IMG/VR virus record: IMGVR_UViG_3300045988_005187
Location: 1-5,467 of that record
Direction: 5' to 3' (one strand)
DNA length: 5,467 nucleotides
Origin: a virus
Shown here piece by piece: positions 1-5,467 of the stretch. The first letter of the stretch is position 1. Every line of letters starts with the position of its first letter. The notes beneath the pieces are model-generated. The model was not told the origin of the DNA. It did not search any database and was given only the letters and a program-made list of their open reading frames with translations. The position numbers were made by a program, and so were the translations under genes.

Positions 1-42
1 GTTTACAACCTGGAAGAGGAAAAAAAGCATGAAAATCTTTAA
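1..42 (+). CDS. Duplicated 3' end of the VP5-like gene (same sequence as 5369..5410). It is partial only because the circle was linearised here.
   Basis: Frame 1 reads VYNLEEEKKHENL then a stop, identical to the C-terminus of the 5165..5410 product. Confidence 0.85.
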   Translation, partial: VYNLEEEKKHENL

Positions 43-99
43 ACCCTACGAGGACGAAAAACCGGAAAGCAGACCGAACGACGCCGGGAACATCATGGA
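1..99. repeat. Terminal direct repeat, copy 1. It is identical to 5369..5467 and is the assembly overlap of a circular genome with a 5368-nt unit.
   Basis: Base-by-base reading shows gtttacaacctggaagaggaaaaaaagcatgaaaatc...catcatgga at 1..99 and again at 5369..5467. Reading frames continue across the junction. Confidence 0.95.
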
Positions 100-526
100 G
101 CCGCAGTATAAGGAACGCTACGACGAAAACGGCAAAGCATACCTGGAAAAAGTGGGCGAAGTAAACACTTATGAAAAAATCCAGAGCTACAGGGACGAAT
201 GCGACGTCATGAGCATTCTGAGCAGATACGCAGCTGGCGACCAGACCGCACTCGCACGACCTGGCTACTACATCGACACCAGCAAACTCCCGCAAACGTA
301 CACAGAGTGGCTAAACCTGATGAACGAAAAACGAGATCAGTTCGACGCGCTGCCGCTGGAAGTCAAAAAGGCATTTGACATGAGCTTTGAAACCTGGGCA
401 GCAAACGCAGGCGAAGAAGAGTGGCTCAAAAAAATGGGCATTATGACGAAAAATGATGCTGCAGCACAACAGCCTGATACAGCAGTATCACCAAAGGAGG
501 AAGAAAAGCATGAACCGAAACAGTGA
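29..526 (+). CDS. VP3: Internal scaffolding protein VP3 (Gokushovirinae/Chlamydia-phage scaffold family), 165 aa
   Basis: SD GAGGA at 16..20 lies 8 nt before the ATG. The product is acidic with the conserved-looking core ...MSILSRYAAGDQTAL...YIDTSKLPQTYTEWLN...FDALPLEVKKAF, typical of gokushovirus VP3. It sits immediately upstream of the capsid gene and overlaps it. The ATG overlaps the stop of the upstream VP5 gene on the circle. Confidence 0.8.
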   Translation: MKIFKPYEDEKPESRPNDAGNIMEPQYKERYDENGKAYLEKVGEVNTYEKIQSYRDECDVMSILSRYAAGDQTALARPGYYIDTSKLPQTYTEWLNLMNEKRDQFDALPLEVKKAFDMSFETWAANAGEEEWLKKMGIMTKNDAAAQQPDTAVSPKEEEKHEPKQ

Positions 527-2150
527 ACAGCATTACAGTCAGGTTCCACACGCAGAAATCAGGCGCAGCAGCTTTAAGAGAGACTTCGGCCTGTTGACCA
601 CGATGAACGAAGGCGACTTGGTACCGATCTACTGCGACGAAGTACTTCCGGCAGATACATTCAAGATCAATGTTAACGGCCTGATCAGAATGGCGACTCC
701 GCTTTATCCGGTCATGGATAACGCGTATGTCGACTTCTACTTTTTCTTCGTGCCGGCACGCCTGCTCTGGAAGCACTTCGAAAACCTCATGGGCCAGAAC
801 GACAGCACCTTCTGGGCAGAAACGGTAGACTATACAACGCCGCAGACCAAAGCACCAACAGGTGGCTGGAAGGTAGGCACCATCGCGGACTACTTCGGGA
901 TCCCGACAGGCGTAGCAAACCTGAGTGTCAACAGCATGCCACTCCGCGCATATGCGAAGATCTGGAACGAATGGTTTAGGGACGAAAACCTGCAACAGCC
1001 GGTGACCATGAGCCAGGACGACGCAACCACGCAAGGCAGCAACACCGGCACGGCGCTGACCGACGCAGAAGCCGGAGGGCTGCCACTCAAAGTGGCAAAA
1101 TACAAAGACTACTTTACAAGCTGCCTCCCATCGCCACAAAAAGGCGAAGCAATAACCATCAGCCTGACAGGTAACGCACCTGTAGAACTCTTTACGGACA
1201 ACAACTTAACAAATCAGCTCACAGAAAGAATTTACCTGGGAAACGGCAGCGCGTCAACAGCAAACAAGCAGAATACTTATATCGGCAGATCATTCTCAAA
1301 CGACAAAGCGGTAACTGTAAGCGGCACATCAACAGCAACAGGAACAACCATCAATAACGGTGTACTGGGAGCAAACTTGCAAGACATCGCAGCAACAACC
1401 ATCAACGAATTGCGGAACGCGATCGCAGTACAGCACATTCTGGAACGAGACGCAAGGACCGGCACCCGGTACAAGGAAATCTTGCAGGGAGCATGGGGCG
1501 TAACCAGTCCGGATGCACGACTTGACCGAAGCGAGTATATCGGCGGGTACAGAATGCCGATCAACATCAATCAGGTGGTGCAGACGTCGAGCACCGACAG
1601 CACGAGCCCGCAGGGCAACACCGGCGCATATAGCTTGACGACCCTAAGTCGCAAAATGTGCACCTACTCGGCAACAGAACATGGCTACGTAATCGGACTG
1701 GCAGCAATCAGGGTAGATCACAGCTATCAGCAAGGTCTGAGCCGGATGTGGACACGCAGCACACGGTTTAGCTACTACGACCCGATGCTGGCCAACCTTG
1801 GCGAACAAGCGGTGCTGAATCAGGAAATCTATGCACAAGGCAACGCCAAAGACACGGAGGTCTTTGGCTATCAGGAAGCCTGGGCAGACTACAGGTATCG
1901 CACCAACATGATCACAAGCGAGATGCGCAGCACATACGCTCAGACACTCGACGCGTGGCACTACGGCGACAAATATACGAGCCTGCCGACGCTATCAAAC
2001 AACTGGATCAAAGAGGGCACGGAAAACATCGACCGCACGCTGGCAGTTCAAAGCAGCAACACGCACCAGTTTATTGCGAACCTCTACTTCGACCAGACAT
2101 GGACAAGACCCATGCCGATCTACAGCGTGCCTGGACTGGAAACGATCTAA
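510..2150 (+). CDS. VP1: Major capsid protein VP1 (Microviridae F-protein family), 546 aa from the ATG at 510
   Basis: It lies within the 453..2150 ORF. SD AAGGAGG at 494..500 lies 9 nt before ATG 510, whereas ATG 453 has no SD. N-terminus MNRNSEQHYSQVPHAEIRRSSFKRDFGLLTTMNEGDLVPIYCDEVLPADTF. Further conserved blocks are YFGIP, MPLRAYAKIWNEWFRDENLQ, CLPSPQKG, TINELRNAIAVQHILERDARTGTRYKEILQGAWGV and SPDARLDRSEYIGG, matching the gokushovirus VP1 pattern as I recall it. Confidence 0.95.
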   Translation: MNRNSEQHYSQVPHAEIRRSSFKRDFGLLTTMNEGDLVPIYCDEVLPADTFKINVNGLIRMATPLYPVMDNAYVDFYFFFVPARLLWKHFENLMGQNDSTFWAETVDYTTPQTKAPTGGWKVGTIADYFGIPTGVANLSVNSMPLRAYAKIWNEWFRDENLQQPVTMSQDDATTQGSNTGTALTDAEAGGLPLKVAKYKDYFTSCLPSPQKGEAITISLTGNAPVELFTDNNLTNQLTERIYLGNGSASTANKQNTYIGRSFSNDKAVTVSGTSTATGTTINNGVLGANLQDIAATTINELRNAIAVQHILERDARTGTRYKEILQGAWGVTSPDARLDRSEYIGGYRMPININQVVQTSSTDSTSPQGNTGAYSLTTLSRKMCTYSATEHGYVIGLAAIRVDHSYQQGLSRMWTRSTRFSYYDPMLANLGEQAVLNQEIYAQGNAKDTEVFGYQEAWADYRYRTNMITSEMRSTYAQTLDAWHYGDKYTSLPTLSNNWIKEGTENIDRTLAVQSSNTHQFIANLYFDQTWTRPMPIYSVPGLETI

Positions 2151-2162
2151 AGAGGTAAGGGC

Positions 2163-3110
2163 ATGGCAGTACTTGAAACACTTGCAGGACTTTTGCCGAT
2201 CATAACCGGAGGTGTGAGCCTCGCTGGACAGCTAGGAAAAACCATAAAAGACCTGACCAGCAGCACAACCAGCAGCGGCAACACAAGCAGCGGCATGGGG
2301 CAGATGGGCATGAACACGAGCTTCGGAAACACCGCAAGCAGCGGAAGCATGACCAGCAACACAACAACCAGCGGAAGCAACTGGCAGCAAGGCAGCATAT
2401 CAGGAATCGCAAGCATACTCAACAGCGCTCTGGGGACACCAACAGGAAACAACGCGACAGGGGCAGCAAACTGGAACGCAGGACAAGCAACCACAGCAAA
2501 CAATTTGCAAACAGGAATGTGGTCACTTGGAAACCTGATGAACCTGGGCAGCAATCTGGCAGCAAACGCAATGAATGCGGCAAGCCAAAGCAGCGCAATG
2601 CGCTATAATAGCGCAGAAGCGCAAAAACAAAGAGACTGGACAGAACGCATGAGCAATACGAGCTACCAACGAGGCGTCGCAGATCTCAAAGCAGCAGGGC
2701 TAAACCCAGTGCTGGCAGCATACAACGGCTACGGAGCAAACACAGGAGGCGGAGCAGAAGCGAGCCTGGGAGCACAAAGCTACAGCCACACACAGGCAAA
2801 CAGCATTCCAGCGGCAAAAATGGCCGAAATGCAAACAATGTACGACTACGGAAACAATACATCACAATTTTTACAACAAGCACAAGCAGCCATCAACGCA
2901 GCGCGGCAAATGGGTGGCCACAATGAAGAAACAGCATTCCGGCAGATCACAAGAGACATCGTAAGCAGCAGCGCAAAAGATGTCAGCGCACTGGCGAAAA
3001 CGGAACAGAGCGCAACAAGCGGAAACACCAGCACGACCGGCCACGGAACAGAAAAAAATTACGCGCTATCCGGAAAAGGGCAGCTGGAATACCAGAGCAA
3101 AAAAAAGTAA
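2163..3110 (+). CDS. VP2: Minor capsid / DNA pilot protein VP2 (H-protein analogue), 315 aa
   Basis: SD GAGGT at 2152..2156. The N-terminus [22 protein letters not shown] is hydrophobic and is followed by a long S/T/N/G/Q low-complexity region. The conserved core [36 protein letters not shown] (about 2613..2717) is characteristic of microvirus VP2. The gene sits directly after VP1. Confidence 0.87.
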
Positions 3111-3141
3111 TTGACAAAAAAGGAAAGAGGGTGTATATAAT
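3111..3141 (+). promoter_or_regulatory. Sigma70-type promoter candidate for the RHH gene, and possibly for rep by read-through
   Basis: A perfect -35 TTGACA lies at 3111..3116. TATATA at 3134..3139 gives a 17-nt spacer, and it overlaps TATAAT at 3136..3141 (19-nt spacer), with TG at 3132..3133. It lies immediately after the VP2 stop and about 40 nt before the RHH start. Confidence 0.6.
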
Positions 3142-3179: not shown

Positions 3180-3374
3180 ATGAAAAACGTGACTAAAAGA
3201 ATCAACATCAATTTAACCGACCGTGAACAAACGGCACTTGAAGCACTCCAACACGAAATGACAACCCGAGGGTGGAACATGAACCAAAGTGACATCATCA
3301 GGGAAGCAATCGTATCATACTGTCACAAGATGACAGGTTACACGTTCGCAAATGAATGGCAAATGAAACAATAA
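3180..3374 (+). CDS. Small ribbon-helix-helix (CopG/Arc/MetJ-like) DNA-binding protein, 64 aa. Putative transcriptional regulator.
   Basis: Strong SD AGGAGG at 3168..3173 lies 6 nt before the ATG. The sequence fits the RHH pattern: beta strand KRININL, helix 1 TDREQTALEALQHEM, loop, helix 2 NQSDIIREAIVSY. It aligns by eye to pMV158 CopG (KKRLTITLSESVLENLEKMAREMGLSKSAMISVALENY). The fold call is pattern-based only. Confidence 0.6.
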   Translation: MKNVTKRININLTDREQTALEALQHEMTTRGWNMNQSDIIREAIVSYCHKMTGYTFANEWQMKQ

Positions 3375-3410
3375 TGCATATAATTGACAGTACGGTCAAG
3401 AAAATTGTGT

Positions 3411-3452
3411 CAGTGGGCCCATATACATCAAGAAGGGTATATGGGCCCACTG
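3411..3452. repeat. Perfect inverted repeat (hairpin/cruciform) with 16-bp arms and a 10-nt loop
   Basis: CAGTGGGCCCATATAC at 3411..3426 is the exact reverse complement of GTATATGGGCCCACTG at 3437..3452. The loop is ATCAAGAAGG. Each arm contains the palindrome GGGCCC. It lies between the RHH stop (3374) and the rep SD/ATG (3459/3474). No T-tract follows on the + strand. Confidence 0.9.
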
Positions 3453-3473
3453 AGGTAAGAGGGTGAATAATCC

Positions 3474-4577
3474 ATGGGATGCACACAACCGCTAATACGA
3501 TTTAAAGATGGACGAATAACAAGCCTCAAAAAATACTTGTACTGCGACGGACTGGCAAAGCGGGACGGCATCATAATCGACGGTATCAGCGTAACCAGCA
3601 ACGAAACAGAACTTAAAAATGCAATAAGGCTAGAAGAAGCAACACTTATACCGTGCGGGAGCTGCACCGGCTGCAAACTGGCAGCATCAAGCAGCTGGGC
3701 GAACAGAATGGAAATGGAACTGCCATACCACGAACAAGCATGGTTTTTGACACTGACCTACAACGAAGAAACAGTACCGTACAGAATGACATGGGACAAC
3801 CTGACAGGAGAAGTGCTCACAGAAAACTTGAGCCTATGCTATCAGGACATGCAAAAATTCTGGAAGAGGCTGAGAAGATACTTAGAATACCACAACAAAG
3901 CAACAGAAAATTTGATGTACTTCCAAGCCGGTGAATACGGAGGAAAAACACACAGACCACACTATCACGCAATAGTGTACGGACTAAACATCCAAAAAAA
4001 CGAGCTAAAGACATACAAGCAAAAAAACGGCTACACATACTATAACTGCGAATGGCTGGAAAAAATATGGGGTCTTGGGTATGTAGTACTGGCACCAGCA
4101 GAATGGCGAAACATGGCATACACAGCAAGATATACCACAAAAAAAATATACGGCAAAGAAGGAAAAGAATACTACAGCGAACTAGGAATAGAGCCAGAAC
4201 GCTGCATGATGAGCAAAAACCCAGCCATTGGAATGCAATACTACTTTGAGCACAAAGAAGAAATCTATCCGAAAGACAGCATACAGCTAAAAAGCGGAAG
4301 AGAAGTAAAACCACCAAGATACTTTGATAAGCTCTTTGATCTGGAACACTCAAAGAGCAAACCGCTATCCGAGGCAGAAAGTGAAGATATTGAAAACACA
4401 ATAGAAAAAGCCGAATCCGAAGAGCTGCAAGCCATCAAACGTGAACGGCGAAGAATCGCGAATGACGCACTTTTTGCAAAGCTCAGACAGACCGGCTTGA
4501 CCATGCAAGAATATTATGAACTACAAAACCAGAAAATGCAAGACAAAATGAAAAAATTGATAAGAGAGGAAGTATAA
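3474..4577 (+). CDS. VP4: Replication initiation protein VP4 (HUH rolling-circle endonuclease, phiX174 gene A family), 367 aa
   Basis: SD GAGGG lies at 3459..3463. Motif I is FLTLTY (3744..3761). The HUH motif is HYHAIVY (3960..3980). The two-tyrosine motif III YTARYTTKK (4119..4145) parallels phiX174 A protein YVAKYVNKK. A cysteine cluster PCGSCTGC lies near the N-terminus, as in gokushovirus VP4. Confidence 0.94.
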   Translation: MGCTQPLIRFKDGRITSLKKYLYCDGLAKRDGIIIDGISVTSNETELKNAIRLEEATLIPCGSCTGCKLAASSSWANRMEMELPYHEQAWFLTLTYNEETVPYRMTWDNLTGEVLTENLSLCYQDMQKFWKRLRRYLEYHNKATENLMYFQAGEYGGKTHRPHYHAIVYGLNIQKNELKTYKQKNGYTYYNCEWLEKIWGLGYVVLAPAEWRNMAYTARYTTKKIYGKEGKEYYSELGIEPERCMMSKNPAIGMQYYFEHKEEIYPKDSIQLKSGREVKPPRYFDKLFDLEHSKSKPLSEAESEDIENTIEKAESEELQAIKRERRRIANDALFAKLRQTGLTMQEYYELQNQKMQDKMKKLIREEV

Positions 4578-4656: not shown

Positions 4657-4691
4657 GACCGGGACGGAGCATAGCTCCGCTCCGGTCTTTT
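4657..4691 (+). terminator. Candidate intrinsic terminator downstream of rep
   Basis: GACCGGGACGGAGC / GCTCCGCTCCGGTC forms 6 bp, then one mismatch and one G-U wobble, then 6 bp, around an ATA loop. TTTT follows at 4688..4691. It lies 80 nt after the rep stop. Confidence 0.5.
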
Positions 4692-4761: not shown

Positions 4762-4799
4762 CAATGGCACGGAAAACGCCATTGTTTTTTTTTTTTTTT
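4762..4799 (+). terminator. Candidate intrinsic terminator with a 15-nt T-tract
   Basis: CAATGGC (4762..4768) pairs with GCCATTG (4778..4784) around a 9-nt loop. It is followed immediately by T15 (4785..4799). Confidence 0.55.
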
Positions 4800-4807
4800 G
4801 GTAAAAT
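4799..4807 (+). promoter_or_regulatory. Extended -10 promoter candidate (TGnTAAAAT) for the small basic protein / RHH2 / VP5 / VP3 / VP1 gene block
   Basis: TGGTAAAAT lies at 4799..4807, directly after the T15 tract, which may act as an A/T-rich UP-like element. There is no good -35. SD AAAGGAG at 4821..4827 and ATG 4835 follow. Confidence 0.4.
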
Positions 4808-4834
4808 TAGAGAAAAATAGAAAGGAGAAAAAAA

Positions 4835-4954
4835 ATGGCATACCGGAAAACCGTAAAACCGAAAATCGACAAGAAAGTCTTCACCAACACGGCGAAAAAA
4901 ACGAAGAAGATCAACGTCAACCCGAAACCGAGCCGAGGGGGCATCAGACTGTGA
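4835..4954 (+). CDS. Small highly basic DNA-binding/packaging protein (gokushovirus ORF8/VP8, analogue of phiX174 J), 39 aa
   Basis: It is absent from the supplied ORF track because it is too short. SD AAAGGAG at 4821..4827 lies 7 nt before the ATG. I translate it as MAYRKTVKPKIDKKVFTNTAKKTKKINVNPKPSRGGIRL then a stop. The F-x-x-TA ... RGGIRL C-terminus matches the Chlamydia-phage ORF8-type peptide (...LFSRTA...MRGGIRF) as I recall it. Confidence 0.78.
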   Translation: MAYRKTVKPKIDKKVFTNTAKKTKKINVNPKPSRGGIRL

Positions 4955-4986
4955 TTGGACGAGCACGACCAGGCGAAAACAAAGGC

Positions 4987-5175
4987 ATGACAAGTCTAAC
5001 CATCTACCTGACACCGGAGGACTTCGAGGAAATCCAAGACTGGCGGGAAGAATTTGTAACAACCTATAGTGACATTGCACGAAAGTGCATCAGAATCGGC
5101 CTGAAGCACAAAAACGAACTCTTTAAAGCGCTGGACAATGACCAGCAGAAAAGGAAGGAAAAATATGGAGTTTGA
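4987..5175 (+). CDS. Second small ribbon-helix-helix-like protein, 62 aa from ATG 4987. An alternative GTG start at 4951 would give 74 aa.
   Basis: This is the C-terminal part of the 4798..5175 ORF. MTSLTIYLTPEDFEEIQDWREEFVTTYSDIARKCIRIGLKHK fits the RHH pattern: strand LTIYL, helix 1 TPEDFEEIQDWREEF, helix 2 YSDIARKCIRIGL. ATG 4987 has only a weak SD. In-frame GTG 4951 overlaps the TGA of the upstream basic-protein gene (CTGTGA) and has GAGGGGG at 4935..4941, 9 nt upstream. The stop overlaps the VP5 start by 11 nt. Confidence 0.5.
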   Translation: MTSLTIYLTPEDFEEIQDWREEFVTTYSDIARKCIRIGLKHKNELFKALDNDQQKRKEKYGV

Positions 5176-5410
5176 AATTTACGCAATCAAAGACGAGCTG
5201 GCGGGAACCTTCGGGAACCTGATGATCGTGAACGCGAAAGTAGCCCAGAGAACCTTTAAGTGGCTGATGAAAGAGACCGAAAAGGCCGACTGCGACGACA
5301 AGCGCATTTACCTGATGGGTACCTACGACAACGAGACCGGCCAGATCACGCCGATCACACCGAAGCTGGTTTACAACCTGGAAGAGGAAAAAAAGCATGA
5401 AAATCTTTAA
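5165..5410 (+). CDS. VP5: VP5-like small non-structural protein of Gokushovirinae, 81 aa. It runs into the terminal repeat.
   Basis: SD GGAAGGA at 5153..5159 lies 5 nt before ATG 5165. MEFEIYAIKDELAGTFGNLMIVNAKVAQRTFKWL...IYLMGTYDNETGQITPITPKLV resembles Chlamydia-phage ORF5 (MKVFTVFDIKTEIYQQPFF...AIRAF...YILYEIGSYDDSNGTFIPLEVPK) from memory. The stop at 5408..5410 overlaps the VP3 ATG. Confidence 0.7.
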   Translation: MEFEIYAIKDELAGTFGNLMIVNAKVAQRTFKWLMKETEKADCDDKRIYLMGTYDNETGQITPITPKLVYNLEEEKKHENL

Positions 5411-5467
5411 ACCCTACGAGGACGAAAAACCGGAAAGCAGACCGAACGACGCCGGGAACATCATGGA
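5369..5467. repeat. Terminal direct repeat, copy 2 (identical to 1..99)
   Basis: See copy 1. It contains the VP5 3' end and the first 71 nt of VP3 (ATG at 5397). Confidence 0.95.
5397..5467 (+). CDS. VP3: Duplicated 5' fragment of VP3 (same sequence as 29..99), truncated by the window end
   Basis: ATGAAAATCTTTAAACCCTACGAG... is identical to 29 onward. Confidence 0.85.
   Translation, partial: MKIFKPYEDEKPESRPNDAGNIM

Follow-up and report, generated by a model that had tools for sequence, protein, structure and literature searches.

Microviruses are regarded as minimal phages that have a fixed core and hardly any accessory genes, and in the model microvirus phiX174 expression is thought to be regulated through promoters and terminators alone. 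The DNA analyzed here, a stretch of 5,467 nucleotides (nt) from the IMG/VR record IMGVR_UViG_3300045988_005187 (hereafter the window), is a complete circular gokushovirus genome and raises the question of why such a phage should carry a small gene resembling DNA-binding regulators between the gene of its J-like basic peptide and VP5. A preliminary description, made from the letters of the sequence alone, had proposed that this gene (4951..5175, hereafter RHH2) is the second, divergent representative of the ribbon-helix-helix (RHH) class in the same genome, the first one (RHH1) being located between VP2 and VP4. The proposal is supported by purifying selection and by profile matches to both RHH1 and the plasmid protein ORF56. 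With moderate confidence, we read RHH2 as a real protein of 74 amino acids (aa), most likely of the RHH type, which would act as a repressor-type binder of double-stranded replicative-form DNA and which represents one of several exchangeable types.

A gene under purifying selection between J and VP5

The open reading frame (ORF) 4798..5175 is present in the window and its 3' part encodes MTSLTIYLTPEDFEEIQDWREEFVTTYSDIARKCIRIGLKHK. All coordinates of the preliminary description were confirmed in the sequence, including a GTG at 4951 lying over the TGA of the upstream gene and an overlap of 11 nt with VP5. The RHH2 gene (4951..5175, + strand) comprises 74 codons plus stop, with a GTG start and a TGA stop. 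This stop (5173-5175) lies 11 nt inside VP5, the ATG of which is found at 5165 (overlap 5165..5175, + strand, ATGGAGTTTGA).

To place the gene among its relatives, we collected 18 related genomes from IMG/VR via VP5, and the interval between J and VP5 was readable in 17 of them. A 67-74-aa ORF of one of three sequence types occupies this slot in 16 of the 17 close loci. The three types, A (the type of the window, containing SLTIYLTPEDFEEIQDWREEFVTTYSDIARKCIRIGL), B (containing FGVSVKLGYKEMMLVDGLQELIEEETGESISAGKILRALIKEGL) and C (containing KIRYAINIENNMLEEIEDVSQTLELPRSKVTRALLRYGL), cannot be connected by BLAST. Type B genes overlap VP5 by the same 11 nt as in the window, and the stop of type C genes is situated 2-3 nt ahead of the VP5 ATG, leaving a short gap and no overlap. 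A fourth type, D, has a length of 61 aa, is 34% identical to type A (tblastn E 8e-5) and is found unannotated in two GenBank microviruses from pig faeces.

An orthologue search over 5.8 billion proteins resulted in three close clusters with 84-95% identity, all of them on gokushovirus contigs of 5.4-5.6 kb and all in the J-VP5 slot. A further orthologue (L007) was obtained from IMG/VR, and P0123, which is encoded on L026 and 58% identical, came from a later profile search; altogether, orthologues were found in the same slot in L001-L007 and L026. Pairwise comparison of five close orthologues yielded ratios of non-synonymous to synonymous change (dN/dS) of 0.02-0.32 in the RHH2 frame, and mostly above 1 (range 0.37-4.8) in the two shifted frames. 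Third codon positions hold 33 of the 52 variable columns in this set. Against the sixth orthologue, L026, synonymous sites are saturated (pS 0.71), and pN is 0.27. Frameshifts or stops in relatives, which had been named as a possible refutation of the gene, did not appear in the six orthologues. Because the orthologues keep the frame open with dN/dS values of 0.02-0.32, the comparison indicates that 4951..5175 is a genuine gene under purifying selection.

Profile evidence for a ribbon-helix-helix fold

The fold assignment is carried by a profile of the A family (alignment A11), consisting of type A together with P0123 and type D. This profile matches the RHH1 family with a score of 26.1 (P 1.3e-4), type B with 23.3 and type C with 23.2. 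All three alignments are colinear and share one consistent register, and each score exceeds 200 out of 200 column-shuffled controls (mean ~10, standard deviation 2.3, maximum ~17). RHH1 is the best match of the A family, and both proteins share genome, size and architecture. With an identity of ~29% over 35 aligned columns RHH2 is therefore no recent duplicate of RHH1, in agreement with what had been suggested before from their alignment.

A similar picture was obtained for RHH proteins from plasmids. ORF56 of pRN1, an RHH protein of solved structure, is matched by the A-family profile with a score of 23.9 (P 1.5e-4), higher than 100 out of 100 shuffles, and the alignment runs without gaps over 35 columns spanning the strand, helix A and helix B (TSLTIYLTPEDFEEIQDWREEFVTTYSDIARKCIR opposite IKLGVYIPQEWHDRLMEIAKEKNLTLSDVCRLAIK). 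A weaker match was found for ArtA of pSK41 (P 0.012). Both ORF56 and ArtA are described as RHH proteins (PMC6619245, PMC2777438). When the types A, B and C were pooled into one profile and searched against the PDB with E-values up to 10, only two matches were returned, ORF56 (0.0029) and ArtA (0.2). A profile pooling both slots had exclusively RHH proteins (CopG, NikR, ORF56) among its top ten PDB matches, with YiiF lower in the ranking. For type D, the sole Pfam match is RHH_5, which covers the full length (E 0.015) and stays below the 26-bit cut-off.

At the level of single elements, the predicted beta-strand comprises residues 15-21 (SLTIYLT; 4993..5013, + strand) with alternating hydrophobic and polar positions, and it aligns with RININLT of RHH1 and KLGVYIP of ORF56. 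R44, G50 and L51 are invariant over types A-C. The order of elements typical of RHH proteins, namely strand, helix A, short loop and helix B, is found in the gapless alignment to ORF56 as well as in a structure model based on alignment A7.

This model was calculated by AlphaFold from 57 sequences of types A-C and contains helices at residues 22-35, 39-49 and 54-72 (pLDDT 79.6, pTM 0.61), which corresponds to a predicted RHH layout with an extra C-terminal helix. Helix A (residues 22-35; 5014..5055, + strand; pLDDT ~88-90) is followed by a loop at residues 36-38 (V-T-T) and by helix B (residues 39-49; 5065..5097, + strand), which has S40 near its N-terminal end. The extra C-terminal helix (residues 54-72; 5110..5166, + strand) is present in both AlphaFold models that were calculated and is possibly an oligomerisation or partner-binding element. 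The predicted strand appears as extended coil in the monomer model. Top Foldseek matches of the 57-sequence model in the PDB were ParG (TM 0.45) and the RHH domain of PutA (TM 0.40/0.58), with non-significant E-values of 4.9-6.3. In the viral library, many matches were named CopG or RHH, all of them non-significant.

Several results weigh against an RHH repressor in this position. On its own, the RHH2 protein reaches no curated family threshold: Pfam returned only DUF matches at ~0.1 and no RHH family, the match to the PHROG family of Arc-like repressors is weak (E 0.11, range 0.08-0.16), and nothing was found in NCBIfam or PADLOC. The A-family profile alone gave no relevant match in the PDB, and a HMMER scan of 1.84 billion representatives retrieved only the family itself and two repeat proteins. 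The latter (P0004 and P0005, long repeat proteins) were discarded as spurious low-complexity matches. With only the four sequences of the family itself, AlphaFold predicted one unbroken helix from 22 to 52 and a second one from 54 to 72 (pLDDT 74.7), which is no RHH layout, and Foldseek found nothing meaningful for this model. The RHH-like model is thus obtained only when types B and C are included in the alignment, and every Foldseek E-value is above 0.8. A search for an operator, performed with k-mers that every genome of a given type contains and genomes of the other types lack, revealed nothing convincing outside the gene. The type-specific k-mers found there consist of one or two bases beside the -10 element of the upstream promoter, are not kept in L006 and L026, and repeats near this promoter are mostly the T-run and A-run.

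We regard the structure models as weaker evidence than the profiles and did not base the fold call on them. Resting mainly on the profile evidence, it is highly probable that RHH2 adopts the RHH fold.

Translation start at the junction with J

The in-frame GTG (4951-4953) lies partly over the TGA (4952-4954) that ends the 39-aa J-like gene. The resulting GTGA junction (4951..4954, + strand), in which the start codon of RHH2 lies over the stop codon of J, is a layout typical of translational coupling. A start-over-stop junction is kept in every genome with a gene in the slot, independent of the sequence type and also in distant relatives. It reads ctGTGA, or ctATGA in L013, L024 and L026, and it is kept even where an unrelated peptidase fills the slot. 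In the close relative L008, which has no slot gene, the stop of J is TAA.

No methionine is encoded between the junction start and the predicted strand in type B, L024 and P0123, and at the position of the internal ATG 4987 methionine is missing in L026 and type B. The residues in between (2-12, IGRARPGENKG; 4954..4986, + strand) form a basic N-terminal arm ahead of the strand. Within this tail, the codons of RARPGEN show four synonymous and no non-synonymous changes between the window and L026. Because the junction is conserved, the internal methionine is absent in some relatives and the RARPGEN tail is kept via synonymous changes, the product should have 74 and not 62 aa. Judged by this conservation, GTG 4951, which had been offered as a possible start, appears to be the start of translation. 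A Shine-Dalgarno-like GAGGGGG (4935..4941, + strand), made by the conserved R-G-G codons of J, is located 9 nt 5' of the GTG, and relatives of types A and C have GAGGGGG or GAGGAGG at the corresponding place.

Two other versions of the product were rejected. The 62-aa form starting from ATG 4987 does not qualify as the main product, given the conserved junction start and several homologues without that methionine. A 125-aa reading from TTG 4798 would start within the promoter and cross J in its alternative frame, and it lacks a ribosome-binding site. It should be added that the alternative frame over J (window 4798-4950) is open in many relatives, where gene callers yield 'fusions' of 111-125 aa with the slot protein (P0012, P0013, P0019, P0021, P0023 and P0054). 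The database entries of 111-114 aa look like gene-caller extensions, and the open alternative frame is probably a by-product of the Lys/Arg-rich codons of J that gives rise to no real product. A cis element was also considered for the 25 nt at codons 3-10, which are invariant in the closest type A genomes. L026 has synonymous changes at these codons, which argues for a constraint on the protein, and the cis element was discarded.

Position in the structural operon

Upstream of J, a terminator hairpin (CAATGGC/GCCATTG, 4762-4784) is followed by a run of 15 T (4785-4799) and an extended -10 element, TGgTAAAAT (4799-4807), the whole arrangement covering 4762..4807 on the + strand. A strong ribosome-binding site and then the start of J are located 3' of the extended -10. 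The type A and C relatives examined also have a hairpin, a T-run and [GT][GT]TAAAAT at this place, and their stems differ in sequence and keep their pairing. A T-run of 14-17 nt and a subsequent TAAAAT-type -10 were found in the window, L002, L003, L006, L007, L010, L013, L016, L019 and L024; the type B genome L010 has GATAAAAT, and L026 has TGTACAAT after the T-run. Based on this recurrence, the arrangement is likely a real terminator followed by the promoter of a J-RHH2-VP5-VP3-VP1-VP2 operon. RHH2 appears as the second, translationally coupled cistron of this structural (late) operon. As its GTG overlaps the stop of J and its end lies 11 nt inside VP5, RHH2 would be made together with both neighbours.

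An accessory gene in an exchangeable slot

In L008, the one close locus without a slot gene, J and VP5 are separated by a spacer of only 15 nt. A profile search for slot proteins retrieved 149 proteins, and all 120 of those listed come from contigs no longer than 7.7 kb, most of them 5-6 kb in length. None of the listed slot proteins has a Pfam match or a functional name, the sole source label being the JGI 'hypothetical protein'. At present, neither GenBank records nor protein databases annotate the slot proteins.

In more distant relatives (VP1 ~50% identical), the slot is empty in L031, L039 and L041, and L029 and L032 contain other small ORFs. A different situation is found in L035, a gokushovirus-like region within a 177-kb contig from the genome of an isolate (Oscillibacter sp. 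PC13, NZ_FOXE01000003.1): here, a Peptidase_M15 gene (6885-7268, E 4e-25), which is a lysis enzyme, occupies the J-VP5 slot and is joined to J by an ATGA overlap. Since the slot contents vary between the different types, a peptidase and no gene at all, the J-VP5 junction is an accessory-gene hot spot. From this distribution, RHH2 is accessory and not core. It lacks the fixed presence expected of the core genes of the Gokushovirinae (VP1-VP5, VP8/J), as it is missing in L008 and in distant relatives and replaced elsewhere. The six-gene core of enterobacterial gokushoviruses also has no such gene (PMC7062461). The preliminary description had argued from the extreme size constraint of the genome that the RHH genes are functional. 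For RHH2, such a constraint does not make the gene essential, as it is an exchangeable accessory and absent from L008.

Some relatives have a second accessory slot between the late promoter and J, which is empty in the window. It contains a hydrophobic membrane-type peptide (IETLAIIGITIAMIGMTVATAALVILTL...) in L003 (3963-4154) and L002 (~3330-3460) and a Cys-rich ORF of 55 aa in L006 (1383-1550).

RHH1 is universal and assorts independently of RHH2

RHH1 (3180..3374, + strand, 64 aa) is located just 5' of the replication gene VP4, and a small RHH1 protein is encoded between VP2 and VP4 in 19 of 19 sublineage loci (range L002-L024) examined at that interval. Its position is a CopG/RepB-like arrangement. 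The consensus reads MKSQVxKRININLT...SDIIREAI, with an invariant strand (KRININLT) and a conserved start of helix 2 (SDIIREAI); helix 1 and the C-terminus are highly variable. Database matches of RHH1 are weak only (RHH_1 E 0.21, aCcr1 family E 0.0085). In contrast to RHH1, which is present in every sublineage relative examined and has an invariant strand, RHH2 is accessory and its strands differ by type (SLTIYLT, GVSVKLG, RYAINIE).

The window and L003 both carry type A and have VP4 proteins with 96% identity, yet their RHH1 variants are different. L008 encodes the RHH1 of the window at 92% identity and has no RHH2. Within the type A genomes, VP4 is 57-96% identical to that of the window (96% in L003, 57% in L007), and L006 combines type A with a VP5 of just 66% identity to the one of the window. 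In these genomes, the RHH2 types assort independently of RHH1, VP4 and VP5. Independent assortment is evidence against obligate RHH1-RHH2 heterodimers, a specific partnership with VP5 and a toxin-antitoxin pair, and it fits a self-contained module. The earlier idea of heterodimer partners therefore lost ground. A heteroimmunity or heterodimer link to RHH1 was likewise rejected, as the types show no co-variation.

The surroundings of RHH1 contain further elements. Between RHH1 and the start of VP4, a perfect inverted repeat of 17 nt (window 3410-3453; TCAGTGGGCCCATATAC, 10 nt, GTATATGGGCCCACTGA) might serve as operator, as attenuator or as the hairpin of a complementary-strand origin, and alternative-frame ORFs in L008 and L020 hint at its conservation. 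A near-consensus promoter precedes RHH1 (3108-3141; TTGACA at 3111, TATAAT at 3136, 19-nt spacer), and TAATTGACA and TG[T/C]ATATAAT recur in reversed order at the end of RHH1 before VP4 (3375-3389).

Proposed function and alternative explanations

In the reading we favour, RHH2 would form a homodimer in which the two SLTIYLT strands pair into a ribbon that reads the major groove. The basic N-terminal arm would help in contacting DNA, and the C-terminal helix might link dimers or contact a partner. RHH2 would recognise double-stranded replicative-form DNA in a sequence-specific way and act as a repressor-type regulator, with DNA specificities that would differ among the types A, B, C and D. We infer that the protein dimerises and binds DNA, and the same holds for its target and its regulatory effect, the repressor function included. 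A more far-reaching version, which we consider doubtful, sees the whole J-VP5 slot as an exchangeable specificity cassette of alternative RHH repressors (A-D) that, together with the universal RHH1, would establish true transcription-factor control. If true, such a cassette could serve heteroimmunity-like exclusion of related phages or the control of a carrier or lysogenic state. To our knowledge, neither exclusion nor carrier or lysogenic control of this kind has been described for Microviridae.

Other explanations start from the neighbourhood of the gene. RHH2 is located between the DNA-binding J-like peptide and VP5 and translationally tied to both, and it might be an accessory factor of replication or packaging that binds near the origin or the packaging site and aids VP4 and VP5 in the switch to single-strand synthesis. 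VP4 indeed matches the Rep_ORF2-G2P family of replication-initiation proteins, which we take to be HUH-type. The RHH accessory proteins TraY, TrwA and NikA assist HUH relaxases, and a protein named NikA was among the weak structural neighbours. We nevertheless consider this role unlikely: RHH2 is dispensable in L008 and missing in L041, L031 and L039, where J, VP5 and VP4 are all retained, no co-variation links its type to VP4 or VP5 (L006; L003 versus L007), and a lysis enzyme fills the slot in one relative. Overlap of a small RHH gene with a small downstream gene is also the classic layout of type II toxin-antitoxin pairs, with RHH2 as antitoxin and VP5 as toxin. The preliminary description had already rated this reading as unlikely, and it is now close to refuted. 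The downstream gene is an ordinary core VP5 (Phage_ORF5, phrog_1670) that occurs without any RHH gene in the slot in L008, L031, L039 and L041, RHH type and VP5 type are unlinked, and PADLOC is silent for both proteins.

A host-directed or anti-defence factor would explain the distribution of the gene, as presence and absence together with discrete, rapidly exchanged types among similar co-occurring phages are typical of host-interaction genes. RHH2 could be an antitoxin mimic whose C-terminal helix neutralises an abortive-infection toxin of the host, or it could repress host genes. Its extra C-terminal helix is reminiscent of the RHH antitoxin layout, and a chain of a mycobacterial MazEF complex and a viral DUF1778 protein were found among the weak structural neighbours. 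However, no PADLOC model matched, the phage has no toxin partner, and DNA binding is suggested by the conserved basic arm and by the polar face of the strand. We rate this explanation slightly lower than a replication or packaging factor. A little less credence still is given to a small helical protein outside the RHH class and without DNA binding, for instance an assembly or scaffolding helper, whose RHH likeness would be due to convergent patterning of amphipathic helices. It would agree with the four-sequence AlphaFold model, a two-helix hairpin without a break at 36-38, and with the failure of the protein on its own to produce a significant family or structure match. Convergence is difficult to reconcile with colinear profile matches in the same register to four independent families or structures of RHH type, each scoring higher than every shuffle, and with pooled-profile matches in the PDB that are almost exclusively RHH proteins.

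Comparison with known systems

Small RHH repressors that control copy number are known from plasmids, such as ORF56 of pRN1 from Sulfolobus (PDB 2k9i/3ft7) and CopG of pMV158. RHH2 shares with them a size of ~45-75 aa and the series of strand, helix A, loop and helix B, gapless in the case of ORF56, and like them it is carried by a small replicon using a rolling-circle or plasmid-type initiator. Unlike CopG and ORF56, whose genes lie directly 5' of the rep gene they control, RHH2 is part of the structural operon. It is found downstream of VP4, beyond a terminator and a promoter and 5' of VP5, and thus does not show a copy-control layout of the CopG/RepB type; the rep-adjacent place is that of RHH1. 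RHH2 further differs by an N-terminal arm of 14 residues, the extra C-terminal helix and a similarity below curated thresholds.

Two small RHH-type proteins in one phage are also known from the immI region of P22, which encodes Arc and Mnt. Arc has an N-terminal arm before its strand, and Mnt tetramerises via an additional C-terminal helix. In contrast to the window, P22 is a temperate phage with 42 kb of double-stranded DNA, in which Arc and Mnt regulate an antirepressor gene that has no counterpart here. Moreover, comparison with Arc and Mnt gave no significant sequence match and no operator was found. Like the RHH antitoxins ParD, CcdA, FitA and DUF1778, RHH2 combines a probable N-terminal RHH part with a C-terminal extension and its small gene overlaps the next small gene. 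Unlike in these systems, the downstream gene is the core gene VP5 and no toxin, the pair is not co-inherited, and PADLOC gave no match.

Genome layout and further observations

The ends of the window are identical over 99 nt (1-99 = 5369-5467), which represents an assembly overlap; the circular unit therefore comprises 5368 nt, and the start of VP3 appears twice. Every gene is encoded on the + strand. In addition to the two RHH genes, these are the VP3 scaffold (29..526; Chlamy_scaf, E 6e-33), the VP1 capsid protein (453..2150; Phage_F, E 5e-166), the VP2 pilot protein (2163..3110), the VP4 replication initiator (3474..4577; REP_ORF2-G2P, E 4e-15), the J-like basic peptide as upstream operon partner of RHH2 (4835..4954, 39 aa; phrog_10695, E 4.8e-9) and VP5 as downstream partner (5165..5410, 81 aa; Pfam Phage_ORF5, E 1.3e-10; phrog_1670, E 2.9e-13). 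The J-like peptide is 80-97% identical among the relatives. The genomes are strongly mosaic: compared to the window, L007 is 98% identical at VP1 and VP2 and only 57% at VP4, and L003 is 96% identical at VP4 and 83-85% at VP1, with a different RHH1 variant.

The motif CGNAAAAC occurs in eight copies in the window, all of them on the + strand, compared to 1.6 expected, and none of 200 shuffles reached eight. The sites include 4612, 4770, 4844, 4852, 55/5423, 325 and 2020. Four copies are grouped around the terminator, the promoter and the start of J, which may merely mirror the A-rich coding bias. A second GC-rich hairpin is located in the long intergenic region between VP4 and J (window 4657-4687), with 14-nt arms of 86% complementarity, a 3-nt loop and a subsequent TCTTTT.

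Relatives with ~50% identity in VP1 occur in Clostridia assemblies, several of them within long contigs (L041, 6578-11474, Muriventricola aceti; L031, L032, L033 and L037). In L041, the structural genes lie between the two parts of a split VP4, the C-terminal one upstream and the N-terminal one downstream, as expected for integration within VP4. This suggests that the hosts are Clostridia and that lysogeny occurs in the wider clade, and the sublineage of the window probably infects Clostridia as well.

Implications for gokushovirus biology

RHH regulators are very common in phages and plasmids, and what is unexpected is their probable presence in a gokushovirus. A large survey of microvirus diversity reported methyltransferases and lysis genes as the only accessory functions, without regulators and with proteins of ~65 aa left unassigned (PMC9239249), and our search of a literature library found no publication that ties Microviridae to RHH proteins. 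Together, the RHH1 and RHH2 genes (195 + 225 nt) account for 7.8% of the 5368-nt unit genome, close to the earlier estimate of about 7 percent. One gokushovirus sublineage thus spends ~8% of its genome on two RHH-type proteins, one universal and beside the replication gene, the other modular. This is unusual for a phage family without described transcription factors and suggests that these phages use DNA-binding regulators of their own. They offer a small and concrete system, accessible to synthesis, in which to study the control of carriage, superinfection immunity or timing in single-stranded DNA phages.

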